Source: Lepidodermella squamata
Taxonomy: Eukaryota; Animalia; Gastrotricha
Direction: 5' to 3'
Length of the DNA: 64,000 nt
Assembly: GCA_047495785.1 (NCBI GenBank)
Contig: JBLDXI010000032.1
Location: 4,030,001-4,094,000, forward strand
Part shown: positions 1 to 50,707 of the stretch, piece by piece
Position numbering within the stretch: position 1 is the stretch's first letter
Layout: each line of letters starts with the position of its first letter
Made by a program: the position numbers and the translations under genes
The notes under the pieces: generated by a model
Told to the model about the DNA's origin: nothing
The model's input: only the letters and a program-made list of their open reading frames with translations
The model's database searches: none

Positions 1-50
1 AGAAAATCATTCATTTCATAGAAAGATGAATTTATTTTAAGCCGAATATT

Positions 51-1329
51 TTACTTGATCGGCGGGATAGCGAACGTCATCAGCTGCATAACGGCGATGA
101 TGGTACACGGGTAAACTAGATTGACGATGTAGAACATGCTTTTCCGACGAATCACAACTTCGAACCGTAGCCGAGAAAATGTGTTATGCCCCGAAAAGTT
201 GTATGTGTAAGGGTAGACTTTCGCTCCAATATAACACAGGTCCCATTGAGCGCTAAATTTAGCGAAAAAAATACCTATGAATTTAATTAGCCTCATAATT
301 TTATACCTGTTGAGACGATCGTCGAGAAGCATTGTAGACTCTTGAGAGAACTCAAACTTAGCAGTGTCCATGGTCCAGCTTTCAAAGTCGTATGTGCACT
401 AGTAATTTAAATGGGATACATTGAATTCAAAAATTCGAAAAGCTCTCACTTTTTGAGTATCGAATGGGAAAGTAGCCAGGTGTAAATGGCACCAAGTGTT
501 GACGCTACCGGTTGGAATGTATCTAGCGTGTCCGTTGTGTGATAATCTCACGAGAAATTGGTCGTCTCGTGTTAACGTATACGGTCCATCCTCGCTGTTC
601 GACATCTGTAAATGTTGTAATTTGAATTAGTGGCGGAATTCGTTGTATGCCTTACCGCTATATCCGGGACCCATATTTGATTTGTTTGGAAAGTTAAAGC
701 TGTGATGTTTCCGAACTCAGAGGGGTTCCAAGTCAGTCTTTTGTCTTCCCATTCCTAAATTATAGGATAATATGATATCGGCTTAATAAAAATCGGGCAA
801 AATTACAAAATTTAAAGCAACAACTGATTTCAAAGTTCCGTCTCGTTCGTTGGAGCTGATGACTTTGATCAGAAGCAAGTCACACCGGACTACCATGAAG
901 CGTTCCGGCATGATTTCACGGGGATGTTCGTGTAGCAGTAAATTAACCAGTTCACTCGTCATCACTTGATTGTCAAAGGCAGCATCCCCACTCGATATCG
1001 ACAATATTTTGTGATGGCCAACTTTGACTTCCTTCAAGTCTAGAAAATTGAAAAAAATCAATTGTAAACAAAATAATTTCTAATTGTTAGTTACCCAGTC
1101 TATTAGTCGTTGGAGCCTTGTTAGCGAAATGCGCGGCCTTTTTCGGAGTTGGTGTAGATGGGTCAAAGTAATAAGTTTTTCGGTCTTGAATAACAGACGT
1201 TTCTGAAATGAGGTTCCACGCCGGGATGAAACTGACGTTGTCGTCAGATGACCAGCAATTAACGCGTGACCTGGCTACGCGACAAGTAATTAACAGCGCT
1301 ATTTGCACAACGCTACATCCGAATAACAT
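51..1329 (-). CDS. Cys-loop pLGIC subunit A (nAChR/5-HT3-like, non-alpha), multi-exon; M2-M4 lie beyond the left window edge
   Basis: Signal peptide at 1329; spliced exons give WVPDIA-MSNS, Cys-loop CHLHLATFPFDTQK-C, FESW, and pre-M1/M1 RRKSMFYIVNLVYPC; GT-AG introns. Confidence 0.9.
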
Positions 1330-1540
1330 GCTATTTCAATCATTTATTACTAATAGTCTATCGCATGAGTTCAAAAACTGACCGCATAAAATGTTCGGAA
1401 AACAACAATCGCGCAGTGACCACAGTGGATAATTTTTATTCAAATTCAATTATCTTTACACAGTTTATCGCTGATATATGATATTTCTGTTGTCTTTACG
1501 CCAGGACAAGGGAAAACAACAATGCGTCGTAAGAATGAGT

Positions 1541-3586
1541 TCATGTGTCGTGCGCTTCGTCCGAATGAAAATCGGACCCGAAATCGGCAAGTGGGCACGC
1601 GTCCTCTGCTGGTGGCGTAAACAGGTAGATGGGTATGACGAAGGTTAAAATCCCGCAAACTATGAAAACTAGAGAATCGAATCGTGTGAAGACCTCCTCC
1701 CATAACAGTGCATTTCTACGTCGGCTCGACTTTATTTCGGCTTTCAACTTTTCGAGCTCCAGATTTTTCGATTTGTGAGCGCTAATTGAGCCGTGACGAT
1801 GAGTGAAGCATGACGAGAAGTTGTCAACGATTGGTTCGGGCTTCATCTTTGATTTAACTGCGCGAAAGGTCGAGGTGACAATCACTGGCCGGTTGTCACT
1901 AGCCTCAAGAATCGGCGTTAAACAGCAATAATTTCTAAATCTGAACTTCCGAGCCGATTTGTTTTGCCTGACGCTCTTCTTTATAGCAGCAATAGGGGAC
2001 TCGGGCTGAGCGATTAATCGTTCAAGATCGATTTGTCGAGATTTTATCGATGAGCTCAGGAGTTTATTAAGATCGATTTTGCCGTACTTTGGCCCTATAA
2101 CGCGATTTCTTTCATCCTGGCTGTGACTCGGAGTCTTCCATAGCATAGGTACGAATCTTAGAATGTTTACTAGGGCGATGGGTGGCGGGATGTTTTTGAT
2201 TTGTCTATCGCTTCTAGAGATGATGACCGATTCAGCGATACTGAACGCGGCGAAAACAACAATTGCGACAATGTAGTGGCTGAGGGCAGTTATCGCTTCC
2301 GAACTTTTCGGCTTCAGGAAAATAACTCATAAATTAAAATTCCTAATTAAATAAAAGCTTTACCATTTCAGCTTGAAGAATAGTCTGGAACATGAAGAGT
2401 GACAACACATTGACTGTCCCGAATCCGATCCGATCAGGTACAGCTCTAGAGCATACCAAAATTGAAAAAAAATCGAAAATATTTCTGGAAAATGTTAAAC
2501 TTTTTAGAGGGAATAGTGTAGGTGAGCAGCTGGATCACGGAAATCGTGCCGCACGGGAAGACAAGATTGACCAGGTAAAAAGCGGCTTTCCTCTTGACGC
2601 TGATGTCGAATCGAATCCGGGAGAATTTATCGGTGGTGTGCAGTATGTCGTAGTTATGGTCGTAGACGAAGGCTGATCGGTTGCATAACATCCATTGAGT
2701 GCTGTCTAGAGTTTCGTCGATGTAAGCCGTCGATGATCTATCGAATAAAAAGCTGGCAGTATCCATCATCCAGCTTTCAAGCTCGAAGCTACACTGCGTA
2801 AAAACCAAGGTCTAGCATGCGAAAATTACTAACAAAATTTTCTAACGTATTGCATATCATAAGGAAATTGCTCGAGATGAAGCCTGCACCAAGTTTGAAC
2901 CGTACCCTGAGGCACGTATTTCAGTTTCCCTTCATTAGTCATTCTAACGAGAAATTTCGGATCGCGAGTGATGGCATAATGATTTCCAACGCTGTTGACC
3001 AACTGATTGAAAAAGCAATTTTTTATTAAAATATGTAGAAGGTCTTCCTTTACCGCAATATCTGGCGTCCAAAGTTGTTTAGTCGTGAATGTGAGGTCCG
3101 TAACATTGCCAAAAGATGCTGGGTCCCAAGTTAGCCGCTTGTCGTCCCATGTCTACACCTAATTTTTAAGAACTATTATTGTCCTAATCTCAATTTTCTT
3201 ACCATAAAAAATGCGACAACTGATTCGAGAACGCCGTCTTTTTCAATAGCGTGCTTGACTTTGACGAGGAGCAAGTCGCATTTGACGATCATTGGCTGTG
3301 CCGGCAATACTTCCTTAGGATGGGCATTTAAGATCGTTTTAATAAGTTCGTTCGAATAGTCAAGATCGGTCAACATTTGGCCTCGTTTGCGCGACGGCTT
3401 TATTGCATGTCTACCGGCCATGAACTCTCGAGCCCGATTCGCGAGACGAAGAGGTGGCTTCCCCGGCAAAACCACCCTGGTCGCATTCTTTGCTGCACTG
3501 CTCGTAAATAAATGTGAGTATATGGCGGACATTTCGACAAAAGCGAAAAGTAAACTCATCAAGTTGATCGCTAATATACAGCGCAT
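1541..3586 (-). CDS. Cys-loop pLGIC subunit B (non-alpha), multi-exon
   Basis: Likely ATG at 3586 (MRCILAINL); WTPDIA, Cys-loop CRLHLEQFPYDMQY-C, KRKAAFYLVNLVFPC (M1), PDRIGFG (M2), M4 RFDSLVFIVC, stop at 1541. Confidence 0.92.
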
Positions 3587-4091: not shown

Positions 4092-5317
4092 TCAGCTCGA
4101 CGAAGTGATCGAATACATATAGCTCATAATGGCAATATGATAAAGCAACAAGGCAACAAAAGTGACGCTGAAACACGCCAAGTCGATGATATGACACAGC
4201 GGGTAAGTGCGCTTGCGATGCCAGAAAAAGCATCGCGGAAGCCGGTACTCTTTCTCAGATGCATCCAGGAAGATATTCGTGAAAAATGCCATCGCAGTCG
4301 AATAGATGGTCATCACCATGGCGAAAATGATGTCGCCAAGGACGTAGTATGCAGCAATTATAGGATTAGGAGTTTTCGGCACGTTGGCTAAAATTTGCGC
4401 CTACAAATTGTGTGTGATTTTAGAAAATTAATCGTAAATTTTGCGAAAATAACCTGTAGGACAAAGATGGACAAAAGAATCGTGCAGGCGTAAGTTGGGC
4501 GATCCGGCATAGACGGTGGTATGAAAAAGGCAGCAAGTTCAAGGATACATAGGATGAACAGCGGTGCGAATAAGTTGATAAAGTAATAATTTGGCCTTCG
4601 AGCAAACGTCAGGTAAAACCTGACTTCGTCGAGTTTGAACTGAGCAATATCGCCGAGAGTACCTAGACCTTCAACCTCAGTTCTTTTAGTAATTAGCCGC
4701 CAGTTGGAGTTGCGAGGCATGCTATATTCCAAGATGTCAAGAATATAAGCCTTTGAAATGTTGACGAACAATTTTAACTGCTTGTTCAAAACCGATACGT
4801 GGCAGGTTTGTTTATCAAAGGGAAATGCCTCGAAATCCATGTCACAGTATGACCGGAAAACACTTAACTGCATGCCGCTGAAGCCACCGAGATCCATTAC
4901 AATGTTCAAGTAGAATTTATCTCCGCCTTGTATTTCCATGTCGGTGATTGAATTCCTGTGCAGTAATTTCGGACGCCAGAACCGGCTTGAATCTATCGAG
5001 GTAAGCATTTTGATCGGTTGAAGCCAATCGCTGGAGAAATACAGATTTTTGACGCACTCAACATTCCAAAAGTACATTATAGCTCCGGCAAACGTGAACG
5101 ACTCTGTGACATCGTCGATTTCAATAAACCTGTCGACTTGTAGACTTATTTCAACATCAGTTGGCCTGTTTTCGAATTCATGCGGCGAGTTGGCCTCAGC
5201 GTTGACATGGCAATGGCTCAGGATGACATCGGTCGGCTTGAAGGCTTCCAATTCGGATTTGTTCACAGCCAAAGTGAATGACGGCAAGAGAGAAATAACA
5301 ATAATTATCGAATTCAT
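4092..5317 (-). CDS. Divergent Cys-loop pLGIC subunit C, two exons, very short M3-M4 loop
   Basis: Signal peptide, WRPKL, Cys-loop CDMDFEAFPFDKQTC, RRPNYYFINLFAP (M1), PDRPTY (M2); one intron about 4401-4454 joins VLQ to AQILANVPKT, then M3 and M4. Confidence 0.9.
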
Positions 5318-5542: not shown

Positions 5543-7747
5543 TCAATAGTAAGGGTTCACTTGAAGCTCATCATGATGCGGGCAGTCGGTATTTGTCAGT
5601 AAAAGCGGCAGAAATAAACCAAGAGGAAGCGCAATGGAAAGGGGCATGAAAATTATGAATAATAACGCATCAAGTCGATTGACGAACGTGGCCCAGGCGC
5701 GGCCATTACGTAACCTCGCCAATTTTATTGCCATCACATAATTAGGCATGACTTTCGACTTCCCAATAATTGTACTACGGCGTCGATGAGCGGCTGATTT
5801 GCTGAATTTTTTTAATTTTTCAGGGCGCGGATCTTGCTCGAATACGTCATCGTCGTCATGATCGAGGCTCGTGGGATTTTTCGGACTATTTTCCGCGAAA
5901 TCGGCGCTATTTTCTTCCTCTTCCTCCTCTTCCTCTACAATCATTTGAGAAAGCGGGATGAAACTGACAATTTTCGACCCCGAAACTTCAATCATGGACA
6001 AACGCCGATTTTTCAGGCCACCGCCAGATGTTGGAGATCCTTTACTGCCCGGCATTATCGAGACTCGCCTCTTCGTCCCAGCGACTGGCGCGACTTCCTC
6101 ATCGGTGACAACTGTCAACCATTCAGACGGGCTCGGCGGACCTTTCTTCGTCAAACTCGTCTCAGCAAGTTTCAACAAAATGTTACTACTGGTCAAAGAA
6201 TTCCCGCTGGATGAGGGCAGACCACCTACGGAAGACAGACGGTGGTGCTTGTGGCAGGCCTTCCTGTAAGATGACAAGCTCTCTAAACTGAAATGGCGTT
6301 GCTGCTTCAGTGGAGCTGATTTGATTCGTTTCTCCTCTTGTTCAGCTTCCTCAGCCTTCATAGGTGCCTCGCTCCACAATTGCGGCACGTATTCAAGGAG
6401 TCGGAGTATCAAAGCAGGCGGTGGGTATTTCGACGATCTTAGCCATCGCTCGACGCAAACTGATTGCACTATCCCCCCAGATGAAGTTACAATTAGTACC
6501 ATTAAATAATCGGATAAACTCGTGATTGCATCGCTTGATTTTGGCTATAGGAAACATTAGGCTTATGTTCGATTTTAGTGAATGTGAATTGAAAATTACC
6601 ATTTCCTCCTGTAGAGCCGTTTGAAACACGACTAGGGTCAGTACGTTGGTCATTCCGAAGCCAACTCGGTCTGGTAGTGCGCTTTTAAATTAAAAAAATA
6701 AGAAAGCGTCCTTAGTTCCATGGTTGCTAAGGTAAACACGTGCCTTAGCAACCTCTCACTAATTTCAACCTACTCTTTCGAAGGTAGAACAAAGGTGAGC
6801 AGTTGGATCACAGAAAGAGTCAGGCAGGGGAAAATTAAATTGACAATGTAGAAAGTTGACTTGCGCCTGACCACGAAATCGAATCTAATTCGCGAGAAAA
6901 TATCAACTCCGGAGCTGAAATTGTAAGCGTGATCGTAGATGGTGATGTTATGCTGGCACAACGTCCATTGTGGTGACATCAGAAATTCGTCGATCAGGGT
7001 CTGCGAATCCTCACTGAACCGCATCATCGTCCGATCCATAGACCAAGACTCGAATTCGAAGCTACACTAAAACCGAAAATCTATTGAAATACGATCATGG
7101 CAAGAGATTTCACTTACAGTTTGAATATCGAAAGGGAAGGTCATGAGCTTGAGGTGACACCAGCTACGAGACGTGCCAGTCGGGACATACTTCATCGTGC
7201 CATTGTGGGATAAACGAACCATGAAACCGTCGTCTCGCGTGATTGCGTAATGATGATCGGCGCTATTTAGCATTGCAATGTCGGGCGTCCAAACTTTGTC
7301 GGTCTTGAAGCTAAGCACCGAGATGTTGTCGTACTCAGCCGGGTCCCAGGTGAGTCTATTCTCGTACCATTCCATCATCAACGCAATGACAGACTCGAAA
7401 ATGCCTTCCTTCTCGACTGTATTCTTGACTTTTAGTAGGAGGAAGTCGAATTTTACAACAAGAGGACGAGCAGGTAGAACTTCTTTTCTGTAACCACTGT
7501 ACAGCTTTTCGAATAATTCGTTGATTTTTGCTGTGCTAGCGTCGACTGGATAAGTCTTTTTTAACTTTGATTTTGTCTGTGGTCGCTTTTTCGGCGGTTT
7601 TGCTGCTCGTCTTTCGCGCGGTAAATTCGCATCATAGATAGTCGCGTTATCTGGCTCAAAAGAGTTTTCTAGGTCAAAGTCATAACTGGCGAAAATCAGC
7701 TTAATTAAAAGCAAAGCCAGCAAACCGTTTAATAGAATTCGTGGCAT
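5543..7747 (-). CDS. Cys-loop pLGIC subunit D (non-alpha), four exons
   Basis: WTPDIAMLNSAD, CHLKLMTFPFDIQT-C, RRKSTFYIVNLIFPC, PDRVGFG M2, long M3-M4 loop, M4 RLDALLFIIF. Confidence 0.95.
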
Positions 7748-7886: not shown

Positions 7887-9873
7887 TCAATAATAAGGGT
7901 CAATGTGTTGTTCATCTTGATGCGGACACACATCGTCGCTATCTGTTACATATAGGCGGGAAAACAAGCCCATTGGCAGGACGAGACACATGGCAGCGAA
8001 AGCGATGAACAGAAGCGCGTCGAGTCGGTTGACAAATTTCGCCCACGCCTTGGCATTTTCAATTGTTGCCAACTTTGCGGCTAATGCCTTTTTCGGAATG
8101 TGTTTCGATTTTTCTAAAATTGCCAACTCGTTGTTGCTGACTTCAGATTCGAGAGCTGAACTGTGGCATTGAGCGAAAGTTACAGGCTTTGAATCCGCTA
8201 CTTCGATGTAAGACAGATTTTTACAATAGCTTGATTTTTTCAAGCAAGGCCAAATCGAGTGCGAGAAACTTCCAAAAGCAACAGTTAGCCATTGCGCCTT
8301 CAGTTCATTCGCGCGATTTTGAGCTATTCTGAAGGCGAAATTTGAACTCGACAGGGAATTTCCGCCGTAAATTGACGGCTCACCGCCGACTGATGACACG
8401 CGGTGGTGTCTATTGCAGGCTCGTCGATAGGACGATAGACTATCTTGCGAGTTGAATCGCATTTGAAACGGCTTGCGCGATTCTTCCATCGAAATTCGAA
8501 CTTCATGTTCCTGCCACAATTGCGGCACTTTATCCAACAAATTCATGAGCGATCTCGGTGGAGGTATGTTGGAGTAACGAAGCCAGCGTTCGACGACAAC
8601 TGATTGGACGATACATGCTGCTGAGACGATGATCAAGGCCATAACATAATCTGATAGGCTGTTCACCGCATCGCCAGATTTAGGCTGGAAAATTAAAAAA
8701 AAAAATTAAATACATTTCAATTGCTCAAAAATAACCATTTCTTCTGTAATTATCGATTGAAAGACGCAAAGTGTTAGGACATTAACCATGCCGAAACCGA
8801 CTCGGTCGCAGAGCGCGCTTTAATGAAATTTTTTAAGATTAGTCAGCCTATTTGCATTAATTTACTCTTTGATTGGCAGGACGAAAGTCATTAGTTGAAT
8901 TATGGACAGGGTCAAACATGGGAAAATCAGGTTGACAATGTAGAAGGTCGATTTTCGATGGACAACGAAATCGTATCGAACCCTTGAGAAGATCTCACTA
9001 CCTGACGGGAAGTCGTAGACGTGGTCAAAGACGGTGACATTATGGTGGCACAAAATCCACTGTTCCGAGGAGAAAGAGCGATCAACTAAAACATTGGACA
9101 TGTTGGAGAATTGAATAGAGTTCTTATCGAGCGACCACGACTCGAATTCGAAACTGCACTGAGAAAAAAAAATAATGATTCGCGATTAATCAGGAGATTA
9201 ATCAATTACGGTTTGAATGTCGAACGGAAATGTCATCAGGCGTAAATCGCACCAGCTTCGCGACGGCCCAGTCGGGACAAATTTCATGCTGCCGTCGTGA
9301 GTGACGCGAACCATGAACATGTCGTCACGCGTCATTGCATATTGGTGATCGGCACTGTTGAGCATCGCAACGTCAGGCAGCCATACTTGATCGGTTCGAA
9401 AGTTCAAGGATGTCATATTGCCATAATCAGCCGGGTTCCACTTGAGTCGACGATCTTGCCATTCCTAATAATGCAAAAAATAGGGAGAAAATCATATGGT
9501 AAATAATTTTCGCCACACAAACCATAAACAAAGAGATCACTGTCTCGAAAATTCCTTCCCGTTCAATCGTCGCTTTCACTTTGATTAGCAAAAGATTCAT
9601 CTTTATGACGACAGGCCTCCCTGGTAAGATTTCCTTGCGATACGTTTTATCGAATCGCTCGAAAAGCGCATCAATACGTTCGCCCTGACCGTGCTCATTA
9701 TCAATCGGGCCGTCGCCATCGAATTGCGATTCATCTTCATCTTCATCTGCGATGTCGGGTACCTCATCAGTTTCATCGTCGTTGAAACATCGGGTTCCAG
9801 CGTTAATCGAGCAACTGGCCAAGGTGATTTCGAAAAATAGGAATTCTAAGATGAAAGCTATGAGAATATTCAT
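7887..9873 (-). CDS. Cys-loop pLGIC subunit E (non-alpha), closest paralogue of D
   Basis: WLPDVAMLNSAD, CDLRLMTFPFDIQT-C, CDRVGFG M2; M3-M4 loop shares SLSSYRxACxxHHRxSSVGG with D. Confidence 0.95.
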
Positions 9874-10028: not shown

Positions 10029-12801
10029 TTACAAGGGAGTACTGCATTTATCATCAAAGACTATGAGCGGAACAAACAACAGCAGGGGTATGAACACGGC
10101 CAGCAGCGTGCAAATAATAAATATGATATGGTCAACTTTCGTAACCAGCTCGCCCCACAAAATGCCGTTTTGAATGCGCAATAATTGGTCTTGCACTTTC
10201 GCATCATCGGCGTTGTTGTTGTTATTAGCGATTTCTTTATTGCTATCGTCGATGTGAACTGCCGACGTAACTGCTGGTTCGACGGCGTGCGTGGAACTGA
10301 CCAAACTGTCGTCGAAACTAGGTCGGTTGAAAGGCGTGACGGCTGTTTCGGTTCCGCTTGACTTGTCAAGGCCTATCACATCGCCACTCCGGCCTGGTTT
10401 ACCGCTACCGTAGGAGCAGGGTGTCTCTTTAGCGAATAATTCGTTAGTTTTGAGGGTCGCCATTAGGTAATCGTCATCGTCGCGAGTGGCAGCTCGATGT
10501 ACCCAGGAGTACGTCTCGTTATCCTGGGAAAATAACAAGGAATTTATTTGATTTTCTTGAAAAAAGGAGTCAGCTGTCGTTGTTGGTGCCTGAACGTCGT
10601 AACATGTTTGGGCGGCACCGCATCGGCCAAAGTGGATTGCCAACAGACAACTCATCATCCCCCTTAAGAACCTGATTTTTATAGCTCTAATAAAATCATC
10701 CCCTTCCTAATGTGGACAGATACACAGGCTGCTAAATTATTAGCATATTCTCACTATTTTTTTTATTATTTGGTGTTTTTTATCTTTAATGAGTGCGAAA
10801 TAAAACTTGCATGTTGTGAAGAATCAGGCGGCGCCAATTGCGTGCTGGCTTTAATGAAGGCCTTTGTTATGTGAGGCGCCGCGACACCGGGCGTCACCTG
10901 GCTGCCAGTTGATGCATACCGGTTATTGCCGCCACTCGTTTTCCCGCGCTTTTTCGCCTTATTGTCTTCTTGAGGACTGGCCGGCGGCGATCGAACGCTT
11001 TCTGGCAAAGGCACCCATAGCTGTTGATTTCTGTCCACATCCGCCTCGAACGGATGTTTTATCGCTGGCATGGATTGGGAGTGCGCGGGCGGTTGCAATG
11101 AGCCGGAAGCTCGGCAGCAATTACATTTCGACGGTGGTTCAATCGACTGCGGCTTTTGATCAGCACCACAATCACCGCCTTCTAAAATCATCTGATTTAT
11201 ACCACTCGGCAACTGGGTGCCCCACATCATCGGGCAGATTGACAGTAGGACCATGGCCCATCTCGGCGGGGGGTTTGTAGTCGTTCTCAACAGCCGTTCA
11301 GCTATGACTGATTCGAAAATGCCGACGGCTGATATCAAAATTAGAGCGATGATGTATTTTGATAATGCTGTAACAGCGTCACTAGATTTAGGCATTTCAG
11401 CAGTTACGATTGTTTGAAATACGACCAGGGTGAGCATATTTGTGGTGCCAAAGCCGACTCGATCCGAAGTTGAACTAAAAATTAAGACTTCTAATTTTTC
11501 CAGTTTAGTTAATTGTTCGACTCTTACTCGGTGCTAGGAATTACGAAGACCAGCAGCTGAATCATCGATAGAGTTGCGCACTAGATTCGCCGACAATTCA
11601 ATTCAAAACTAAAATCTCCGATTGAAAAATAAATTACCGGAAAAATTAAATTAATAATGTAAAATGTGCTTTTGCGTCGAACAACGAAATCGAAACGGAC
11701 ACGTGTGAAAAATTCGCCGGTAAAATTGTAGTAGTGCTGATAGACGATGGCGTTGCGTTGGCAAAGCTCCCATTGCGGGCTAAATTAAAGGGGAAAATAT
11801 TCTGTCGGCTCAAGGACTTGCGATTCAACCAACCTTGAAAAGGACTCGTCTACCAACGCTTCAGACGAATCGTTGAAGGTCATTGTACTAAAAACAAAAT
11901 AGTGGATAAAAATTTGATCAGAAATTTGATCCTTTGAGCGAACCTTGAATCCAGCGACCATGATTCAAATTCAAAGCTGCACTAGATGAGGAAAAAAGCA
12001 GTTAACTAAGTGACATCAATGGAAGATTCTTACGGTTTGGACATCGAAAGGAAAAGTAAGCAGTCGAAGATCGCACCAAGTTCTTGCTGTGCCAGTAGGT
12101 ACGAACTGAAAATGGCAAATTAAGGAGGATCAAGGTGCATCGAGTTGAATTTCACCTTCATCGCCCCACTGTGAGACACCCTGACAACAAAACGGGTGTC
12201 CTTCGAAATCGAATACAAATGATCCGCAGAATTTGTCATCTAAAATGGCAAATGTCTTATTTTCTAGGTTAAAGCTGAATTAAAGAATTACAGCAATATC
12301 TGGCAACCAAACTTTGTCGGAATCAAACGCTAAAATTGTTACGTTGTCGTAATCGACGGGATTCCATTTCATTCGCTTATCGGTCCATTCCATGAATAGA
12401 GCGATGACCGACTCGAAAATTCCTTCTTTCTCAATCGTCGATTTGACCTTGAGAAGCAGCAAATCAAGCTTGACCGTTGTCGGTCTGACCGGTACGAGTT
12501 CCTTGTGATAATTGCCGAAAATTTCTTCGAGAAGTTGATTCAGGGCATGACCGCTTTCTTCCCCATTCTCCGATGACTCCTCGTTGTTATTGTTATTGTT
12601 GTTCGAAGATGATGATGAGAATGACGACGAGCCCTGTGGACGCTGATAGTTGTCTCTATCTCGATCAGATTTCGAATCTCGGTCAGATGGAGCAGCCGTG
12701 ACAACTTTCGGAACTTTCTTCATACCTGCGCCATAAACCTGGCCAAGCGGCATCACGCTTAGAATTGCGATTATTACACCCACCGCTGTGGCTAGGTTCA
12801 T
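10029..12801 (-). CDS. Cys-loop pLGIC subunit F (non-alpha), multi-exon
   Basis: ATG 12801 (MNLATAVG signal); WLPDIA-MTNSAD, CDLRLLTFPFDVQT-C, SDRVGFGTTNMLTLVVFQ M2, M4 KVDHIIFIIC. Confidence 0.93.
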
Positions 12802-18054: not shown

Positions 18055-18105
18055 AAATAAATTGGTAAAAACAAAAATTTGTTTTAATTAGGTTTTTTTG
18101 AAATA

Positions 18106-36648: not shown

Positions 36649-36891
36649 ATGCGTTTTTTGTCAGTATTCTCGTTATGGCTACTTCTTCTCCTGGCAGTGA
36701 TTTCCGGATCATCGAAACCTTTCCGACCTCCAGCCAAGTCAGCTTTCAGCCCAGCTAATCGCCTGATGAAGCCACAGATGGATCGAGAAGCTAATGGCAA
36801 CAAACCCCGAGCAGCTAACGAAAACGTCGAGTTTCACCGAGTCGTTCCAAGCTTTCGAAGTTATGCAAAGAAATTCAGAAAGACACGTTAG
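36649..36891 (+). CDS. Small secreted basic peptide
   Basis: Leu-rich signal; upstream CTATTTAAA. Confidence 0.7.
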   Translation: MRFLSVFSLWLLLLLAVISGSSKPFRPPAKSAFSPANRLMKPQMDREANGNKPRAANENVEFHRVVPSFRSYAKKFRKTR

Positions 36892-37385: not shown

Positions 37386-37703
37386 ATGAGGCAAATTCTG
37401 ACTTTCCTCGCGATCTTAGCTTTTATCGGTGAAGCGTCCAGCCTATCTCTAAATGGAAGTGGCAGGCTATGGCAGAAGATTTACGACGAAGAAAGGCGTG
37501 CAATCCTGGAAAAGTTTAATGATGGCTTGCAGCAGCGAAACTTTCTGAAAGCTCCCAACGTCAGACGGCTACTGCTGGGTCTTGCAAGCGATCAGCCATC
37601 GGAAAATCAACCAAATGCCCCCGATAGCAGGGAGGAAAATGTACCATCTTCAGGCGCCATCGGCCCAATTCGAGTACCGAAAGTTACTAAGCGCCCACTT
37701 TAA
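37386..37703 (+). CDS. Small secreted peptide precursor
   Basis: Signal ending ASS; RR sites. Confidence 0.7.
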   Translation: MRQILTFLAILAFIGEASSLSLNGSGRLWQKIYDEERRAILEKFNDGLQQRNFLKAPNVRRLLLGLASDQPSENQPNAPDSREENVPSSGAIGPIRVPKVTKRPL

Positions 37704-38253: not shown

Positions 38254-38568
38254 ATGGCTTCTTTCATCAAATTTTACACCGTTTTCATGGTCTTATCAAT
38301 GGCTATGCTTATCGTCAGCGCAAGTTCAGGGTTGAGGCTTCGAACTGGTCAGCGATTCGACAACACGTTAGCCAGCCGAGCTGATTCTCCGGCCTTCGGT
38401 GACGAGCCTGAATTCATACGGCAAACCTTTGTCGGATCAGCGCGCCGATACCAGCCATTCCAACAGCGACAGGTTTATTTCATCGATAAACCTGGTAAAC
38501 GCGCGCCTGAATTTCACTACAACCCGCGACAAATCTACAAAGTTCACCGTGGCAATTACGACTGGTAG
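38254..38568 (+). CDS. Secreted prepropeptide
   Basis: TATAAA at 38168; signal; RR-YQPF...IDKP-GKR amidation-type site. Confidence 0.78.
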   Translation: MASFIKFYTVFMVLSMAMLIVSASSGLRLRTGQRFDNTLASRADSPAFGDEPEFIRQTFVGSARRYQPFQQRQVYFIDKPGKRAPEFHYNPRQIYKVHRGNYDW

Positions 38569-38902: not shown

Positions 38903-39136
38903 ATGAAATTCTACGCTTGTTATTCCATCTTCGCTTTTGCGATTGTCTTTTGCCTGTTGCAAAGTTTGGTTCGATGTGATGAAGAAGCTGTGGAAGACGA
39001 CGATGATGACAATTTGGCAGGTTACAACCCATTCTTCGCCCTAGCCAGGAAACGCGGCCTTGTTGAAAGCTACGATCGCGACCTCTTTTTCGAGCGCAAC
39101 TTGGCCCCGTTTGAATCAAGCGACGAAGCTTATTGA
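38903..39136 (+). CDS. Secreted acidic prepropeptide
   Basis: ATG 38903, signal ending VRC-DEEAVE, NPFFALA-RKR. Confidence 0.75.
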   Translation: MKFYACYSIFAFAIVFCLLQSLVRCDEEAVEDDDDDNLAGYNPFFALARKRGLVESYDRDLFFERNLAPFESSDEAY

Positions 39137-39352: not shown

Positions 39353-39739
39353 ATGAATAGCTTGAAACTTAGCATTTTCGCTATGTCTTTCGCTGTTTTA
39401 TTCATCGCCTCGATCAACTACGGCCTTGTTCGCGGCGATGAAAGCGCTGTTGAAGAGGAAGATGTCGCCGAGAAGCCGCTGTTGGGTTTGTTCAAGCGAA
39501 GCGATGAAGAAGAAGAAACGCCTGAAAATCCTCTCTTGGGCTTGTTCAAAAGAAGCGTCGACTTCTACGATGAAGACTCAGTCGGAGGATCAGATGAGCA
39601 AGTCGAGGAGGTGGCGAAGCGCCGCAGTGGCTTTTTCGCCAACCGCCGCTACGACGCGCCGAAAAGCAGCTACAGGCCCATAATCGATCACCACCACTTC
39701 AACAGCCCGGATCACATCGATGTCGAACAAGAGTACTAA
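39353..39739 (+). CDS. Neuropeptide-like precursor with repeated PLLGLF-KR units
   Basis: Signal ending VRG-DESAVE; EKPLLGLFKR and ENPLLGLFKR; KRR-SGFF. Confidence 0.82.
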   Translation: MNSLKLSIFAMSFAVLFIASINYGLVRGDESAVEEEDVAEKPLLGLFKRSDEEEETPENPLLGLFKRSVDFYDEDSVGGSDEQVEEVAKRRSGFFANRRYDAPKSSYRPIIDHHHFNSPDHIDVEQEY

Positions 39740-40132: not shown

Positions 40133-40441
40133 ATGTCTCGCTCTTGTGTGGGTCTACTTGCTTTCTGCCTTTGCTTGATCGCCAGCACCGTCATGGCTAG
40201 ACCTCGCCAGCATGCAGTCAATGGCGTCTTTTCATCACTTCTATTAGACGGCGATCATGTTCAGCCGTTATCTCAAAACGGTGTTGACTTTGACGAAACT
40301 CTACAGCGAGAGGATCCTTCGTATGCCGCACCTGTGCAACAAAACTATCCGTCGGAGGACATGCTTGGTAGCGAATCGGCTTACATCCAAAAAATTGCGA
40401 ATTACCTACGCGGCGAGGATATCGCCAACTTTTACGATTGA
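40133..40441 (+). CDS. Small secreted acidic protein
   Basis: Signal ending VMA-RP; no dibasic sites. Confidence 0.68.
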   Translation: MSRSCVGLLAFCLCLIASTVMARPRQHAVNGVFSSLLLDGDHVQPLSQNGVDFDETLQREDPSYAAPVQQNYPSEDMLGSESAYIQKIANYLRGEDIANFYD

Positions 40442-40953: not shown

Positions 40954-41502
40954 ATGACAACAGCTGTTAAAATTCTCATGCAATTAGCCGTTGTTGTAGC
41001 GGTTGTCTCGGCGAGACGGTCGAAAATTGTTGGCTCAGGCAATGCCATGGTGTTTTCGATAAAGCAGTCCGGCAATGGTGGGAATGTTGACGGTTTGGAG
41101 GTCGAATCACTCAACGGCCGTGCTATGCGCGTCTCACCAACGGTTGAGGTGATCAAATCGCAACGCTACAAACGTGGTGACGAAGAAGAAGACCACTCTG
41201 GAGCGACGATTGAACACGAGTCGAATTCAGAGTCGCACGAAGGCGATAGCGATGAGGAACATGGCGAGAGCCTTGAGGAAGTTGCGAAAAAACGAGCTGG
41301 CCCTGGAGCGGCTCGATTTCTCGCTACCCACCGGGCTCGGCGTTCCCCAGCTCTCGGCCGCCTGCGAATGAAGATGAATAAGCGCGGGCATTGGACTGCG
41401 GAGAACTGGGAGGAGAACGATCCTTATGGTGAGGACAAGCGTGCTGTTGGCACCGATTGGAGCCCGGCTCAACGCGTCAACAAAGGCGTGTTCAAAGGCT
41501 GA
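40954..41502 (+). CDS. Multi-peptide prohormone-like precursor
   Basis: Signal; KR, KKR, RR, KR, KR sites; acidic spacer; C-terminal Gly (VFK-G). Confidence 0.82.
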   Translation: MTTAVKILMQLAVVVAVVSARRSKIVGSGNAMVFSIKQSGNGGNVDGLEVESLNGRAMRVSPTVEVIKSQRYKRGDEEEDHSGATIEHESNSESHEGDSDEEHGESLEEVAKKRAGPGAARFLATHRARRSPALGRLRMKMNKRGHWTAENWEENDPYGEDKRAVGTDWSPAQRVNKGVFKG

Positions 41503-41992: not shown

Positions 41993-42529
41993 ATGGCTCG
42001 TTTTCTAGAACTTTTTTCTCTAACCTGCTTGTTCTTCGGAGTCGTCATGGCCCGAGGCGGTACGGAGGACGATGGCGGCACAATGGCGAAACGGCCCCGT
42101 CCAGCCGCTGGTCGGCACCTAGTTGAATACCGCGTCGGGCCTAGTAGCCTGGCGAAACGTTCGTTGCGCCCCGTCCTCGGGCGCCACATGTTCGATAAGC
42201 GCACCCCACCCTACCTCGGCTACAGCCGCTACGCCAAAATGCAGGCAATGAAGCAGGAATTCGGATCACCCACAGTGCAAAAACGCGGCTTCGTTTTCGA
42301 TGGAGATGCGCTTCAAGTTTCGAAGCGCTCGCCGCCAGCTGCGGCCGGCCGCGTGAGAATGACTAAGCGCATCCCGCATAAAGGTAAGCGTATTCCGCAT
42401 AAGGGTCGCGCATCTTTCTGGACCAATAGCAATCCAGTCTATCAACAAGTTGTCAAACGATCTACTCTCCTACAGCAGCAAAATAAGTTCAACAAGAAAC
42501 TGTTAGGCTTCGTCGGTCGATCGTTCTAA
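41993..42529 (+). CDS. Multi-peptide prohormone-like precursor with eight KR sites
   Basis: Likely ATG 41993 (MARFLELF signal); KR-IPHK-GKR-IPHK-GR and other KR-flanked peptides. Confidence 0.85.
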   Translation: MARFLELFSLTCLFFGVVMARGGTEDDGGTMAKRPRPAAGRHLVEYRVGPSSLAKRSLRPVLGRHMFDKRTPPYLGYSRYAKMQAMKQEFGSPTVQKRGFVFDGDALQVSKRSPPAAAGRVRMTKRIPHKGKRIPHKGRASFWTNSNPVYQQVVKRSTLLQQQNKFNKKLLGFVGRSF

Positions 42530-42768: not shown

Positions 42769-45492
42769 TCATGTATCATCCCCGCATTTTTGCGAGTTTT
42801 CAATGATTAACGGGATGAAAAGCAGCGTAGGACTGCCGAAGGAGATGAGAAGGCAAAATAGAAAGGTGAGATGATCGAATTTCGTGATGAGTTCGCCCCA
42901 TTTTAGCCCATTATTGATGTGGACGCGGACAATTTCTTCCTGATCGGCATCTGCGTCGTAACTATCCGCCATTTCGTCGTCAGAAGACGATGACGACGAT
43001 GATGACGAATGACTTGTCTTACTACCAAGCTTTATTGGGCTGACTTTATTCTGCGGCGATTCAAATTTGATGCTAACTTTTCGCTTCGTCGGAGTGTCCC
43101 CAATCGGAACTGATATGCCATTGCCGATTCGAACGTGGCCATTCGATTTCGGCCGGATGCAGGGTGATAAATGCTCGACATCAATTTCGACCCCTTCTTC
43201 GTCCACGGACTCAATAGCATATTTGTACCTCGAAGCACTGAATTCATCCTAAACGAAAGATAAAAATTGAAAATACCAAAAGAAATTTATGAAAAATCCA
43301 CCTTAACGTAAATTTGAATTTTCGGCGAAATTAATTTAAAATTTAAATTTTTTTGAAAACATTTTCAACTCACTATTTCTCTATCAATAGGCAAGGGAAT
43401 TGGGGTGATTCGCTGCCGATCCGGACTAAATAAGGTCATATCGAGTGATAGATAATCATTTTGAGTAGCTCGACTGATCCTTGTCGGCTGTTCCTTCGTC
43501 ACAACGGCCGCTGTGTTATTGTCGTTGATCGATTTGCGCCGACCATCCGCACCGTTGATTGTTATTTCAGGCACCTTCTGTTTCGACTTGCTGCTCGCTA
43601 ACAGAGTCGCAGCTGCCACTGCCACCTTGCTCGACGTACTCATCCGGCGGCGAGCTGCCGACTCCGATGCTGGCGATGGTTTCAGTGAAACATCGCTCGT
43701 CCGCTTCGAGGCCGTTCCTGCAGCCAGTAATCTGCCGGCAATTGGGGCGAAAGCAAGGGACATTCGTCGCATCGGGGCATTGTTAGGGGCCAACAACCCG
43801 CCGGCCATACTTCCAATGCCGCTTTTCACATCCTTATCAGACTTGACTGCATTCGTCGCATGGCTTCCACCCTCCAGAATCATTTGATTGATGCCACTAG
43901 GCATTTGTTGCGTCCATAGCAACGGGAAAACTGTCGACATTTTGTAGATCCATTTCGGCGGGGCGGAGGTCGTGCATCTCAACATTCGCTCAGCCACAAC
44001 TGATTGGAAGATGCAAATCGAACTGGTCACAATAAGAGCGATGATGTATTTCGACAATGCGGTGACAGCATCGCTAGACTTCGGCATTTCCCCAGTTACA
44101 ATTGTTTGAAACACGACTAGAGTCAGCATGTTCGTCGTGCCGAAGCCGACCCGGTCCGAGGTTGAATCAGTGCTAGGGATGACGAAGACCAGCAGCTGAA
44201 TGATGCTCAGAGTTGCGCACGGGAAGATGAGGTTGATGACGTAGAACGAGTATTTCCGCCGGACGACGAAGTTGTAGCGAACTCGGGTGAAAGTTTCACC
44301 GGTGAAGTTGTAAAAGTGATCGTAGACCACAGACTGGCTTTGGCACAGCGCCCATTGCGGGCTCGAGAACGCGTCGTCGACTACGGCAGTCGAATTGCGG
44401 TCAAAGGTCATTGCGGTCGAGTCAAGTGACCATGACTCGAATTCAAATGTACACTATAAAGCAGAAAATGTGCAATTTTAAGTATTTTCATTGCGAACAT
44501 ACCGTTTGAATGTCAAAGGGGAATTCGAGCAGCTTCAAGTCGCACCATGTTCGTGACGTACCGGTTGGAACGAATTTCATCGTCCCATCAAACGAAACCC
44601 TGACGACAAAGCGATTGTCCTGAAAATTGAGAAAAGTTGTCTGATTTTTTTTCAAAATCATGAAAAATGCCTAGACCTTTGAAATTGCGTACAGATGATC
44701 GGCACTATCTGAAATTCATACTCGAAATTAGTTTAATGAGAAATTTAATTGAGAAAAACTTACTGGTCATCTGATGAATTGAATTACAAGTACAAAAATT
44801 AGTGATTCCGAGACGTATCAGGGATTTATAAACTTACCGCAACATCAGGAAGCCAGATCTGTAATATCGAAACATGCGAAAAATGATGGCAGAATTTAGA
44901 TTCTTTTTACCTTTTCTGAATCAAAGGCCAGCATTGTAACGTTATCGTACTTCTTCGGATTCCTTTATGTTTATAATTTGGCATTGAATTATCAAATCGT
45001 TACTATTCATGAACTCACCATGTGAGCCGGCGATCTTCCCAAGACTGTTGAAATAAATGTAAATCGCTAACTAAAATTATGAAGGCAGTCACCTACCATA
45101 AACAAAGCTATGACGGACTCCAAGATGCCCTCCTTTTCGATAGTCGACTTAACTTTCATCATTAGCAGGTCCATTTTGATAACGGTCGGACGCTTCGGGA
45201 CCTGAAATTATCACTTGTAAAACGCGTCTAAAGTATCGCCGAAATTTCAGACCAATTCTTTGCGGTACGAATCAAACATAATTCTCAGCAAATCGTTCAA
45301 ATCGTCAATGTCATCATTGTTGGTTTGCGTACCCTCTGTTCATATAACAAAATTGATTGATTGAATTAAATGTAAAATTGCGGAATTCGTAAAGGACTTA
45401 CCTTCGTTTGCAGCCTTCATTATGGCCGAGCCATCAGCAAGGTGGCTGAAACAAATGAAGAATTGAAAAGCGGATATCACTCTGATCAGCAT
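42769..45492 (-). CDS. Cys-loop pLGIC subunit H (non-alpha), about 11 exons including a 7-nt microexon
   Basis: ATG 45492; exons reconstruct IWLPDVA-MTNSAD, CDLKLLEFPFDIQT-C; M1-M3 in ORF 43365-44411; M4 KFDHLTFLFC. Confidence 0.92.
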
Positions 45493-46059: not shown

Positions 46060-48546
46060 TCAGACATTGCCGCCACATGTTTCTTCCATCAAGGCGAGCG
46101 GCAAGAAGAGAATCATAGGTAAAAAGATGGCCAACGAGGCGCAAACTGTGAACGTAAGGCCATCTAGACGGGTGACAATAGCGCCCCAAGCTCGGCCGAT
46201 TTCGATCAGTTGAAATTCGTCGACTAGGCGTGACGTAGTTTTGCGCAAATTCGCCGAGTTGCGCCGGCTTGTGTTACCTGATGGCTGATTGATGACACCA
46301 CCCAACAACTCTGAGAACGGCTCCTCTCCGGAATAAGTGTTCGAAAGCACAGCGTAAGGCAGATATGGCCGAGGAGAGTTGATATAAGTCTAAAAAAATA
46401 TGGAATTATCAGGTAAACAACGGCAAAAATTCTCTCACATTTCCGAGGCTTGGCCTTCGAAAATTTGTGTTGAAGGTCTTGAAGTACTTGGTACCAGGCC
46501 GGAAGAGTCTCGTTTCATCCTCGCTGATGCAATCGGGCAGTTTCATGTAACCATCATCGACATTCTCCGACGCCGAGTGAATCAACTTTGCGGATTTCAT
46601 CGACGATTTACGCGCAACTCCGCCCCTCAATGATGTCATCCTACTAGCGTTTATCGAAATCGAATTTTCCATATCATCGTCAGGCAACGTGGCGCAAGCT
46701 GCTAGCAATGTCTGTGACTGTTGCGATCGGCGTCTCTGTTGATTATTCAGTGTCTGGTTGTGATATCTCGAATTCGATTTTTTCGCTGTCTGAGTTTTGC
46801 TGTTGCTCATTTGTCGCCGTTTTGCGGTCGATCGGAAGAAGAAATCAGCGCAGCTTGACCGCCGCTCCTCTTCATACTCGATGATAATTGATGGATCTTT
46901 GCCATGGTCGTCACCGGGTGGCGACAGCATGATGAGGGGATTCTGACTTCCAAAGCTACTCTGGTTGAGTAAGGTCGGTTTGTTCGAATTCGCTGGGGTG
47001 GAATAGCCAGACTGATTCGCCTCGCCCATGTCTTCCTCTGTTGGCTTCTGTGTCCAAGTGCTCAAAATCATTCCAGCTATCCCAGTTGGCAACTGGGAGT
47101 GCCATAGCAGTGGCAGACGGAGTTTAACCAGCCAAGCTGGCGGTGGGGTGGTTGTAGGACGGAGAAGTCTTTCGGCAGTTACCGATTCTAAAATTCCCAG
47201 CGCGCTAATGATGATCAGGGCGATGATGTATTTCGAGAGGGCTGTGACGGAATCACTCGATTTCGGCATCTCCTCCGTGATAATTGTTTGAAATACGACA
47301 AGGGTGAGTAGGTTCGTAGTACCAAAAGCAACTCGATCCGAGGAAGCACTGATATCAGGCAAAATGTTATTTATTTAGCCTAATCTATTTAGTCTTACTC
47401 TGTCGACGGAATAGCGAATACAAGAAGTTGAATTAAGCTCAAGGTAGCTGTCGGGAAAATCAGGTTGATGATGTAGAAAGTTGACTTCCTCCGCACGACA
47501 AAATCGAAGCGAACTCGTGTGAAGTTTTCGCCCGAAAATTCGTACAAATAATCGTAGACAGTTGCGCGGTGTTGGCAAAGCGCCCATTGCGGGCTAGCAA
47601 AGGCATCGTCTACTAAGGCATCCGAACTTGTATTGAATGTCATCGTACTGGAATCAAGAGACCACGATTCAAACTCAAAGCTGCACTGTGTGAATATGAT
47701 AATTGTCCAAATCTAGGTCAAATAAATAATATCGAAACTTACGGTTTGTACGTCGAATGGAAACGTGATGAGTTTCAAATCGCACCAAGTTCGAGCTGTT
47801 CCAGTTGGGACGAATTTCATTGTCCCATCGTGGCTGACTCGAACGACAAATCGCGTGTCTTTTGAAATCGAATACAAATGATCGGCTGAATTCGTCATCG
47901 CGATGTCCGGCAACCAAACTTTGTCGGAATCGAAGGCTAACACAGTCGTATTGCTGTATTCTCGAGGGTCCCTGTAAAAAAAAAGTTGTTTTTTTGCAAT
48001 TTGATGTCATTATAGCTTGTACCAAGTGAGTCGTTGATCTTTCCATTCCTGTATAAACCAAGATTTAACATATTTCAATTAAAATTAAGTAAGGAAACAA
48101 ACGATAAATAAGGCTACGACTGATTCGAAGATGCCTTCACGCTCGTTTGTGCTTTTAACTTTGATCAGAAGCAAATCAAGACGGACTGTGGTCGGTCTCT
48201 TCGGCACTAGTTCTTTGTGATAGTCGCCGAAAATTACGATAATCAGCTCGTTCAGATCGTTGCCATTGTCCAACTCCTGGTTTCGCCTATTCGGCGGCGT
48301 TGTCACTTCTCGATCGAGTTTAAGTGAATCTTCCTTTTTTATTTTACGGCCTTGGTAAAGTTAAACAATTTTAAGACATTTAATCATTTGAAAAATGCCC
48401 AACTCACGAGTTTCTTCGATTGCGTGTTTTTGAAGCATTAACTGCTGCTGTTGGTCTTTTTGAGACTTCCCGATTATCGCTCCATCACTTAGCAGCAGCA
48501 TTAAGCTGCTAATAACAACGGCGAAAAACGTAACTGTCAGGTACAT
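46060..48546 (-). CDS. Cys-loop pLGIC subunit I (non-alpha), multi-exon
   Basis: Signal at 48546; WLPDIAMTNSAD, CDLKLITFPFDVQT-C, SDRVAFG M2, M4 RLDGLTFTVC. Confidence 0.93.
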
Positions 48547-48897: not shown

Positions 48898-49086
48898 TTA
48901 TCCGCCTCGATTTCGAGCCGAAGAAAAAATTTGCTCGTTGTAGCGACGAATAGGCTGCTTGCCCTGATTTGAAAACCCAAGTTTTTCCAACATTTCATCA
49001 ATAGAACTGGCCGAGATTGGTGCCGTCAGAAGGCAGAAAATTGCCACCAAGGCAACACAGACGATTAAAAACTGATTTTTAAACAT
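48898..49086 (-). CDS. RRY..IFS-family small secreted peptide 1
   Basis: Signal; EMLEKLG...QPIRRYNEQIFS. Confidence 0.75.
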   Translation of the reverse strand: MFKNQFLIVCVALVAIFCLLTAPISASSIDEMLEKLGFSNQGKQPIRRYNEQIFSSARNRGG

Positions 49087-49659
49087 TTCACTAAGACAAA
49101 GAAAATTAGTTGAAAAGTCAGGAATTGACTCAATTATTAGGAAAAGTCAGCAGTTGACTCAATTATCAATCACGGGATTTTGCTGCTTAGTATGGATTTA
49201 ATAAATTATGACCTGTAGCGATAGAGCATTACTTCGTGTGCGCAGTAGCAATTCGAATGGCCTTTGAGGTAATTATTTCTATTGCGAAAATTCTACGACC
49301 TAGAAATTATTGATAATCGCGAAACTTCTGAGTTTCACTGCGTTCCGCCTAAATAATCAATTGTCCAAAATATGTAGGCAATAGCTAATTAAGCAGCAAG
49401 GCAGGTATATGCTGTCAGCAAACCAAGTCACGGTTCATCACTCATGAAACGGATTTTGGTCATAAAGACCTTTGCCCTGGTTCTCCTGGGATTCTTGCGT
49501 CTTTCCCTCATGATGATACCAGCGAAATGAGAAACGAGAGAGATTGATTTTACGAGAGACATGTGTTTATTTGTATCTTATACTGGATACTGGTTATAAG
49601 GAGATCGAGAAATATGCGATCGCTAAGAAAGAAATTAGGAACTTGAATTTACAGTACTT

Positions 49660-49965
49660 TCAGCAACAATAACGCGTTCTTTTCGCAGCATAGTGCGAGT
49701 GTCTTTTCGGCGGTGTCTTCTTCCGGTAGGAGAAGATCGGCTCGATGTAGCGGCGCCGTGGATTGCCACCATTTCGCCGAACAGCACTTTCGAGCAGTCC
49801 TAATGCCTCCAACAACTGCTTCAAGCGAAACTCACTGAAAGCCGAGCCTATGGGCTGAGTTATTGGAACTGCATTGTCTTCTTGTAGCTCCGTGTCATTG
49901 GTCGACTGCGCGACGATAGCAGCCAATAAAGTTGCCAATATTGATAGAGCGAATAGTATTCGCAT
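49660..49965 (-). CDS. RRY..IFS-family small secreted peptide 2
   Basis: Signal; QLLEALG...NPRRRYIEPIFSYRK. Confidence 0.78.
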   Translation of the reverse strand: MRILFALSILATLLAAIVAQSTNDTELQEDNAVPITQPIGSAFSEFRLKQLLEALGLLESAVRRNGGNPRRRYIEPIFSYRKKTPPKRHSHYAAKRTRYCC

Positions 49966-50422
49966 AAGTATTTGAATTGTTGAAAAAATATAAATGTTGT
50001 CCTGCGCTTAAAATCAGTAATTTCGCCGCTGGTTCTTATAAATGACCTGTTTTGGCGACCGGTTTAATCATCAGCACGCGATTAAAGCTGGGTTATACTT
50101 CTGATAGGAAGCTGATTCAGACTGGTAACTATGCGAACCGAAATAATAGCCGGCGGCGACGGGGTGTTAATCGTTATTTTAATTACTCTTAAAATTACAA
50201 CGCATTTCTGTAAAGTGGCGAAGCTAATTGATTTTTTATACGAAGGCAATTATTAGGCGTTAAATGCATTCTAAAAATATGGAGGCGTTGTAGCGTAAAA
50301 TATTAACTATTAACCTCAGATTATTAAACAAAAATTACATAGAAAATTATCTTCAAGACAAAAACAGCTTTATTCGTAATCAACGAATTTCCACAGTGCG
50401 AAAACGTCGCGCGATAACATGG

Positions 50423-50707
50423 TTAGTCAATGTGATCAGTTAGAGTTGATTTCGGCGGAAATTTTCGGTGGGAAAATATCGGCGTGTTGTAACGCCGTTG
50501 CGGCAGTTTGTGCCTTCGCTCGGCTCGATCGAGCAGGCGCTGAACGCTGTCGGCCATGCCGAATTTGCGCAGGGCTTCGATGATGCTAGGCTCGATGTCC
50601 TTCGACAGTGATTGTACTTGGTTGAAAGATATCGAGGCTGGTGCTGCTTGTAAAGTCAAAACTGCGACTGCAGCGAGTTGTAGCGCGATTATCAGGGCGA
50701 TATTCAT
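50423..50707 (-). CDS. RRY..IFS-family small secreted peptide 3
   Basis: ATG 50707; signal; EALRKFG...LPQRRYNTPIFSHRK. Confidence 0.78.
   Translation of the reverse strand: MNIALIIALQLAAVAVLTLQAAPASISFNQVQSLSKDIEPSIIEALRKFGMADSVQRLLDRAERRHKLPQRRYNTPIFSHRKFPPKSTLTDHID

Follow-up and report, generated by a model that had tools for sequence, protein, structure and literature searches.

Does a locus in which ligand-gated channel genes enclose a block of secreted-peptide genes hold receptors together with their ligands, or two neighbouring families with separate roles? We addressed this question in a 64,000-nucleotide stretch of the gastrotrich Lepidodermella squamata genome (GCA_047495785.1, contig JBLDXI010000032.1, positions 4,030,001 to 4,094,000; hereafter the window), for which a preliminary description had proposed that orphan Cys-loop channels, which are pentameric ligand-gated ion channels (pLGICs), are gated or modulated by the peptides encoded between them. 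The window holds seven minus-strand pLGIC genes (A to G), 27 co-oriented plus-strand signal-peptide genes, two further pLGIC genes (H and I) and three minus-strand peptide genes, a layout already given in that description and borne out by modelled frames and a signal-peptide filter. This is a real and unusually large prohormone-like gene cluster beside a previously undescribed orphan channel subfamily. With a probability of about one half (0.52), we read it as two tandem arrays interleaved through local rearrangement, in which the channels are predicted amine-opened cation channels and the peptides mainly act elsewhere.

Channel subunits

Nine pLGIC genes were modelled by hand as spliced open frames, A being cut by the window start. 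All nine gave an open frame with GT..AG introns only and carry a C-x13-C loop with FP[FY]D; Neur_chan_LBD scored above the Pfam cutoff in the open reading frames (ORFs) of D and C, as did Neur_chan_memb in the H ORF (three of the nine genes scanned). The best PDB sequence matches of the channels are nicotinic subunits, and the H exon aligns almost gap-free with human alpha3 and alpha6. Taken over the extracellular domain (ECD) plus transmembrane segments (TM) 1-3, pairwise identity is 72-81% among F, G, H and I, with F and I as the closest pair (81%), 67% between D and E, and 42-54% for A and B against the remaining channels. C shares 22-27% identity with the other channels and lacks the loop-B Trp motif. 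Judged by these comparisons, C stands apart as a highly divergent pLGIC, and the array consists of eight related subunits plus this one unrelated channel.

The stretch SDRVxFGTTNxLTLVVFQ, said to be common to F, G, H and I, was confirmed in all four. In a quick channel tree of 21 rows, with A left out and the careful search unfinished, F, G, H and I grouped with a support of 87 (drawn open), which together with their identities agrees with the proposal that the pairs F/G and H/I, on either side of the peptide genes, belong to a single subclade. The same tree pairs F with P0005 (support 94) and I with P0002 (support 96). Channel relatives at 54-66% identity were met only among ENA proteins (six matches among 6868 candidates). 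The channel homologue searches returned 6, 0 and 4 matches; a clam subunit sharing 25% identity was the single one not from this ENA set. Because F and I each pair with a protein of the relative that supplied P0001-P0017, the channel subfamily appears to be older than the split from it.

Ligand pocket and pore

Loop letters and prime numbering follow the usual convention. The vicinal cysteines of loop C are found in none of the nine channels, and compared with human alpha3, alpha6 and alpha4 all eight related subunits have lost the loop-A Tyr (replaced by Thr, Leu, Ser or Val) and the loop-D Trp (replaced by Ala or Ser). The loop-B Trp and the first loop-C Tyr are retained in 8/8, and the second loop-C Tyr is changed to Phe. 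Since vicinal cysteines, loop-A Tyr and loop-D Trp are all lost, the canonical acetylcholine (ACh) site is gone from these channels of nicotinic lineage, as the preliminary description had claimed. In all eight, Glu replaces Gly two residues before the loop-B Trp, and E-S-W is also present in all four relatives covering loop B. The Lys/Asp pair of nicotinic acetylcholine receptors (nAChRs) is swapped, likewise in 8/8: the Lys four residues before the loop-B Trp is Glu (Asp), and the Asp two residues past the second loop-C Tyr is Arg.

According to the passages cited, ELIC needs Glu131, two residues before Phe133, for activation by amines, with ACh being ineffective (PMC3119659), and in the beta subunit of the gamma-aminobutyric acid (GABA) type A receptor E155 holds the ligand amine and a loop-D Arg binds the carboxylate (PMC13335744). 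By its residues, the replacement pocket resembles this GABA/ELIC primary-amine site. An amine ligand is suggested by this Glu ahead of the loop-B Trp, in the absence of a loop-D Arg for a carboxylate, and GABA itself is not predicted because the loop-D Arg is missing. The absent loop-D Arg and the acidic -1' position also depart from the features of GABA-A, glycine and GluCl receptors. In the second transmembrane segment (M2), -1' is Asp in all seven related subunits whose M2 lies inside the window; as this Asp aligns with the -1' Glu of nAChRs, a cation pore is predicted. B and D carry Pro at -2'.

Among F, G, H and I, conservation reaches 0.96 in loop A and 0.88 in loop B against 0.74 for the whole ECD; since these two loops are more conserved than the domain around them, one small common ligand fits better than many peptides. 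ELIC was not among the 26 PDB matches of a sequence search with the loop-C stretch, and an ECD model of P0016 was uninformative (predicted local distance difference test score, pLDDT, 56; PDB matches at a root-mean-square deviation >22 A).

Secreted-peptide genes

The signal-peptide filter was a crude hydrophobicity test, not SignalP. It passed 25 plus-strand ORFs in 17.5-42.6 kb and one on the minus strand, against a chance expectation of 1.5 +/- 1.2 ORFs per strand with a maximum of 5 (100 Markov shuffles). For the curated set of 27, named here by p and the first position, the 54-aa ORF 34271 was dropped and three ORFs below the filter were added, 20480 and 29132 by paralogy and 33015 by cDNA cover. 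Of 40 listed differences in the read run X1 (314 further), 28 fall in four ORFs, 22 of them at third codon positions (p 1e-6). Two other runs, X2 and X3, were taken as cDNA because they show adaptor, poly(A) and a GT..AG joint, no run being on record as RNA, and their depth was left out of the gene ranking. Read cover applies to 30.9-50.8 kb with 18 peptide genes; 11-31 kb, including the junction of G with the peptides and eight genes of the SNNLG family described below, lies outside it. The cDNA-like runs cover 16 of these 18 genes (contig pieces, variant-site depth or bins); p30745 and p50423 have no or trace cover, which is no evidence of silence.

Dibasic sites occur in 27 of the 30 peptide genes (none in p34707, p35306 and p40133), and paracopies or Gly amidation donors are clear in three (p41993, p40954 and p39353). 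The Pfam cutoff was reached by none of the 30. In Atlas, most neighbours of p41993 are precursors of neuropeptides, but every neighbour scores <0.9, so they serve as a lead only. The view of the secreted ORFs as prohormones thus holds for several with that architecture and not for p34707, a Cys-rich EB-like protein.

The peptides had been taken as mutually unrelated, which does not hold for all of them. An all-against-all comparison sorts the 30 into 17-19 sequence groups, among them nine SNNLG paralogues (28-45% identity to the first member) and the three-gene RRY..IFS family (p48898, p49660 and p50423). Two motifs run across groups, hFS in 8/19 peptides (family-wise p 0.008) and KRGF in 4/19 (0/1000 shuffles); this set of 19 leaves out the SNNLG genes and keeps a single RRY gene of the three, p36013 was counted via its unspliced frame, and the reduced alphabet for the test was picked after the motif was noticed. 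On these resemblances, much of the peptide block is probably one or a few hyper-diverged families, and tandem duplication of few such ancestors would therefore explain clustering and co-orientation. A profile of the nine SNNLG genes found 0 matches in 1.84 billion proteins and none in Atlas. Because F and I have probable orthologues in the relative while this profile finds none, peptides as the channel ligands are disfavoured.

Interleaving of the two arrays

Each array splits the other: the F/I pair straddles the peptide genes, and the distal p49660 resembles p39353, a gene within the block (44% across 34 aa; pairwise E 3e-4). The statement that the peptide block splits one receptor array accordingly stood, with the addition that the left array is itself broken between F and G by a Tae2-like and a RING-finger gene. 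As deduced from gene order, inverting 17.5-48.7 kb alone would make the 30 peptide genes contiguous and co-oriented and the nine channels contiguous, and two nested inversions would yield the same layout from a fully co-oriented ancestor. Since one or two inversions yield the layout, the linkage signal reduces to two neighbouring arrays. The RING and Tae2-like genes and a receptor pair at 57-64 kb suggest a region in which tandem arrays abut each other. Searches for a conserved neighbourhood in metagenomes gave 81 and 50 pattern matches, of which 0 were confirmed, the relative's proteins coming without gene context. An assembly artefact in 31-51 kb is unlikely, X1 covering 30/30 bins at 70-148 and a single contig spanning the step from p41993 to H, although the assembly and X1 may not be independent.

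Under the two-array reading, the precursors would enter the secretory pathway and be cleaved by convertases at KR/RR sites, some peptides being amidated at Gly. From prior expectation, they would signal through G protein-coupled receptors (GPCRs), the usual neuropeptide route in the cited passages (PMC11993918, PMC6475428), in which lineage-specific tunicate peptides have been matched to GPCRs (PMC6475428). Cationic SNNLG products may be defensive. The eight related subunits would assemble into pentamers that are selective for cations and open in response to a small primary amine. Few ancestors would have given rise to much of the peptide block, and one or two inversions would have shuffled the two neighbouring arrays.

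Several points weigh against this reading. Among F, G, H and I, loops C (0.67), D (0.67) and F (0.62) lie slightly under the ECD mean, and the loop-C register is ambiguous by one Tyr. A pocket that is acidic and aromatic could also accommodate the N-terminus of a peptide or the side chain of Lys or Arg, residues that make up ~16-17% of the peptides. Absent SNNLG homologues are weak evidence because only fragmentary gene calls represent the relative. The history of inversions is argued from parsimony, with no outgroup to root it. The arrays abut tightly, with 397 bp between G and p17722, 239 bp between p41993 and H and 351 bp between I and p48898. Finally, H, I and peptide genes are covered in the same cDNA-like run.

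Alternative explanations

The leading alternative, which we consider less likely, is a co-regulated neurosecretory or gland module, close to the gland or immune cluster that the preliminary description had itself named as its second reading. In it, the channels sit in the peptide-making cells, an amine depolarises these cells through the predicted cation filter and triggers release, and shared regulation keeps the genes linked. The 27 co-oriented genes are spaced by a median gap of 446 bp, G stands head-to-head with p17722 (H is tail-to-tail with p41993), and X2 covers H and I besides the peptide genes. However, whole-library contigs cannot reveal co-expression at the level of cells, and X3 covers peptides but not H (absence being weak). 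Once 512 and 1957 words are corrected for, no 5- or 6-mer shared upstream of the genes is clearly prominent, and neither cAMP response element (CRE) nor E-box words are enriched.

It is unlikely that the locus is a defence cluster, in which cationic SNNLG and other products are antimicrobial or deterrent and lie beside a bacterial wall amidase that has been domesticated, the channels being either chemoreceptors or neighbours without a connection. The SNNLG mature regions have an isoelectric point of 10.4-11.4 in the seven of nine for which it was computed, no Cys and predicted helices at low confidence (the fold model was uninformative, pLDDT 55, predicted template modelling score 0.25); a Tae2-like gene lies within the locus, and the cited passages describe the C. 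elegans nlp-29 cluster as six antimicrobial peptide genes (PMC2453101). Yet the SNNLG paralogues are old, with a proportion of synonymous differences (pS) of 0.67-0.91, i.e. saturated synonymous sites, and of nonsynonymous differences (pN) of 0.40-0.58; the variants are mostly third-position, and p41993, p40954 and p39353 have multicopy prohormone architecture.

We consider it quite improbable that the locus is a linked receptor-ligand supercluster in which processed peptides gate or modulate pentamers of these subunits, as the preliminary description had favoured. Loss of the ACh site, an acidic pocket facing basic peptides and the mutual interleaving of the arrays would suit it, and hFS and KRGF, running across peptide groups, could be a receptor-binding element. 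Against it stand a single conserved pocket of small primary-amine type versus 17-19 peptide groups that diverge much faster, SNNLG not being detected in a collection that contains the relative's channel orthologues, and a layout that needs only one or two inversions. Moreover, among the papers listed by a keyword search of the open literature, none announced a peptide-gated Cys-loop channel in its title or opening lines, and the passages found in two of them named only DEG/ENaC types. Its boldest form, in which the animal's own peptides gate or tune Cys-loop receptors for the first known time and share one supercluster with them, with hFS/KRGF or a peptide amine docking in the acidic pocket, is the most doubtful of all.

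Channel gene models

The window has a GC content of ~42% and the character of a compact animal genome; all 50 scored introns are GT..AG, with a median of 53 nt. All nine channel genes are on the minus strand. A (55..1329) comprises ECD and TM1 only, the window start truncating it, and is followed by B (1541..3586, 594 aa). C (4092..5317, 390 aa), the divergent outlier, has one intron and a short M3-M4 loop. D (5543..7747, 668 aa) is the sister of E (7887..9873, 592 aa). F (10029..12801, ~764 aa, the intracellular-loop splice being uncertain) is a probable orthologue of P0005, and G (14887..17324) encodes 657 aa. H (42769..45492, 697 aa) has 10 introns and includes a 7-nt micro-exon (44764-44770, minus strand) needed for its open frame, and I (46060..48546, 722 aa) is the orthologue of P0002 (83% over 187 aa). 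H has 10 introns versus 3 in its paralogue D; going by these gene models, intron gain or loss is rapid among the channel paralogues. No single unspliced ORF spans the whole binding interface of the related subunits, and among the 15 of 42 joints listed for X2 there is no channel splice joint.

Peptide gene models

The plus-strand block opens with p17722 (17722..18054), a precursor with three KR sites and KRGF and hFS motifs, and p18106 (18106..18396), a secreted basic precursor of 96 aa. Only 51 bp (18054-18106) separate these two genes, an operon-like spacing in which AATAAA precedes a strong site of splice-acceptor type. Next come p18883 (18883..19251), a secreted precursor, and p19774 (19774..20088), a secreted basic one, each with an hFS motif. 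The SNNLG family comprises p20480 (20480..20959), p24934 (24934..25518), p25894 (25894..26439), p27051 (27051..27542), p27972 (27972..28529), p29132 (29132..29593), p29931 (29931..30524), p30745 (30745..31239) and p32209 (32209..32634) as members 1 to 9; the last has cDNA cover, and 7/8 of its listed variants are third-position. Between members 1 and 2 lies p23515 (23515..23862), a secreted precursor of 115 aa.

Downstream of the family, p33015 (33015..33431) is a precursor whose signal peptide is weak and whose 5' end is uncertain, with an hFS motif and cDNA cover, and p33835 (33835..34242) a precursor with a KRGF motif, cover in both cDNA-like runs and 7/7 listed variants at third positions. 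The secreted Cys-rich EB-module-like protein p34707 (34707..35078) has 13 Cys and is not a prohormone; p35306 (35306..35470) is a short acidic secreted peptide of 54 aa, called with lower confidence.

The claim that all peptide genes are single-exon fell with p36013 (36013..36429), from which both cDNA-like runs show a 65-nt intron (36215-36279) removed, shortening the precursor from 138 to 70 aa. Retention of the intron keeps the frame, adds two further predicted peptides and leaves the 138-aa product with KRGF and hFS; it is possible that splicing here controls peptide output. Just upstream, at position 35983, contigs of both cDNA-like runs begin at the same AG, and one has 12 extra 5' letters not in the window. 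A spliced leader is possible at this one gene, and a literature keyword search on the leader-like end gave no match. A general trans-splicing or operon signal was not supported, strong acceptors preceding 10/30 start codons versus 1-8 in four controls.

Four genes with cDNA cover follow: p36649 (36649..36891), a secreted basic peptide of 80 aa, the precursors p37386 (37386..37703, 105 aa) and p38254 (38254..38568, 104 aa), and the acidic precursor p38903 (38903..39136, 77 aa). The multicopy precursor p39353 (39353..39739) has two PLLGLF-KR paracopies, which may resemble tunicate LF peptides, and a C-terminus related to p49660. An acidic secreted protein without dibasic sites, p40133 (40133..40441), carries an hFS motif; p40954 (40954..41502) is prohormone-like, with four KR sites, a terminal Gly and cover in both cDNA-like runs. 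The clearest neuropeptide precursor is p41993 (41993..42529), with eight KR sites and two IPHK-G paracopies (predicted amides). On the minus strand, p48898 (48898..49086), p49660 (49660..49965, with cDNA cover) and p50423 (50423..50707) are members 1 to 3 of the RRY..IFS family. Comparison of six peptide motifs with a xenacoelomorph precursor supplement (PMC6188537) gave two incidental matches only.

Other genes and elements

The gap between F and G holds two minus-strand genes. The Tae2/BPSL0067-family amidase-like gene (13169..13664, end approximate) encodes a secreted protein of ~150 aa with a signal peptide, contains a 58-nt GT-AG intron and matches NF033857 (E 2e-13) and 6WIN (E 4.5e-4). 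It probably derives from a bacterial effector that was domesticated, as was tick dae2 as described in the cited part of bioRxiv 2020.04.10.036376, here in another animal. The RING-finger gene (13950..14603) starts slightly upstream of 14603. Within the peptide block, 22261-23256 is an element of 1 kb that resembles a DNA transposon, presumably hAT-like; its terminal inverted repeats, 20 nt long, are perfect, and the target duplication measures 8 bp. A second inverted-repeat element lies at 21216-21709. Beyond the arrays, a multi-exon gene at 51776-53100 (minus strand) has no family match (Pfam for one exon ORF, NCBIfam for both). An ankyrin-repeat ORF (55660-56712) precedes a tandem pair of class C GPCR-like genes (56996-64000, plus strand) with an ANF_receptor domain, 88% identical over 245 aa, which are candidate peptide or chemical receptors.

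Comparison with known systems

The closest likeness of the channels is to nAChR subunits (human alpha3, alpha4, alpha6 and alpha7, muscle beta), with which they share the Cys-loop, loop-B Trp, loop-C Tyr, acidic -1', four TM and a long M3-M4 loop. They differ in having no vicinal cysteines, loop-A Tyr or loop-D Trp, in the Glu before the loop-B Trp and in the swapped loop-B/loop-C charge pair. ELIC and GABA-A beta share the Glu two residues before the loop-B aromatic (cited passages of PMC3119659 and PMC13335744), and ELIC, which is cation-selective and ACh-insensitive, likewise matches the predicted selectivity; in contrast, the present channels are nAChR-like by sequence descent and have no loop-D Arg. 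A nicotinic-derived subfamily that has apparently rebuilt a GABA/ELIC-type amine site would offer a directly testable example of how a Cys-loop lineage changed its ligand.

Cephalopod chemotactile receptors, as described in the cited part of PMC11526382, are also nAChR-derived, tandemly clustered and without ACh response. Theirs, however, are diversifying-selected pockets binding hydrophobic molecules, whereas the present channels have an acidic pocket and conserved loops A and B; the likeness is one of description. With peptide-gated DEG/ENaC channels (FaNaC, HyNaC and the Wamide-gated types; cited passages of PMC11993918) only the concept of ionotropic peptide signalling is in common, DEG/ENaC channels being trimeric and of an unrelated fold. 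Should the peptides gate the channels after all, the locus would provide a second fold for peptide-gated ion channels and ready-made ligand-receptor pairs.

Nothing relevant on orphan nAChR arrays, or on large clusters of mixed neuropeptide genes, came from narrow keyword searches of the open literature. The peptide genes compare best with the C. elegans nlp-29 cluster and planarian Planarin spp-6/7, which in the passages cited (PMC2453101, PMC2953531) are tandem, lineage-restricted secreted-peptide genes grown by duplication. In contrast to the six genes of nlp-29 and the two adjacent of five Planarin genes described there, the present cluster has 30 genes in 17-19 groups interleaved with channels, and so exceeds the peptide-gene clusters of those passages several-fold.

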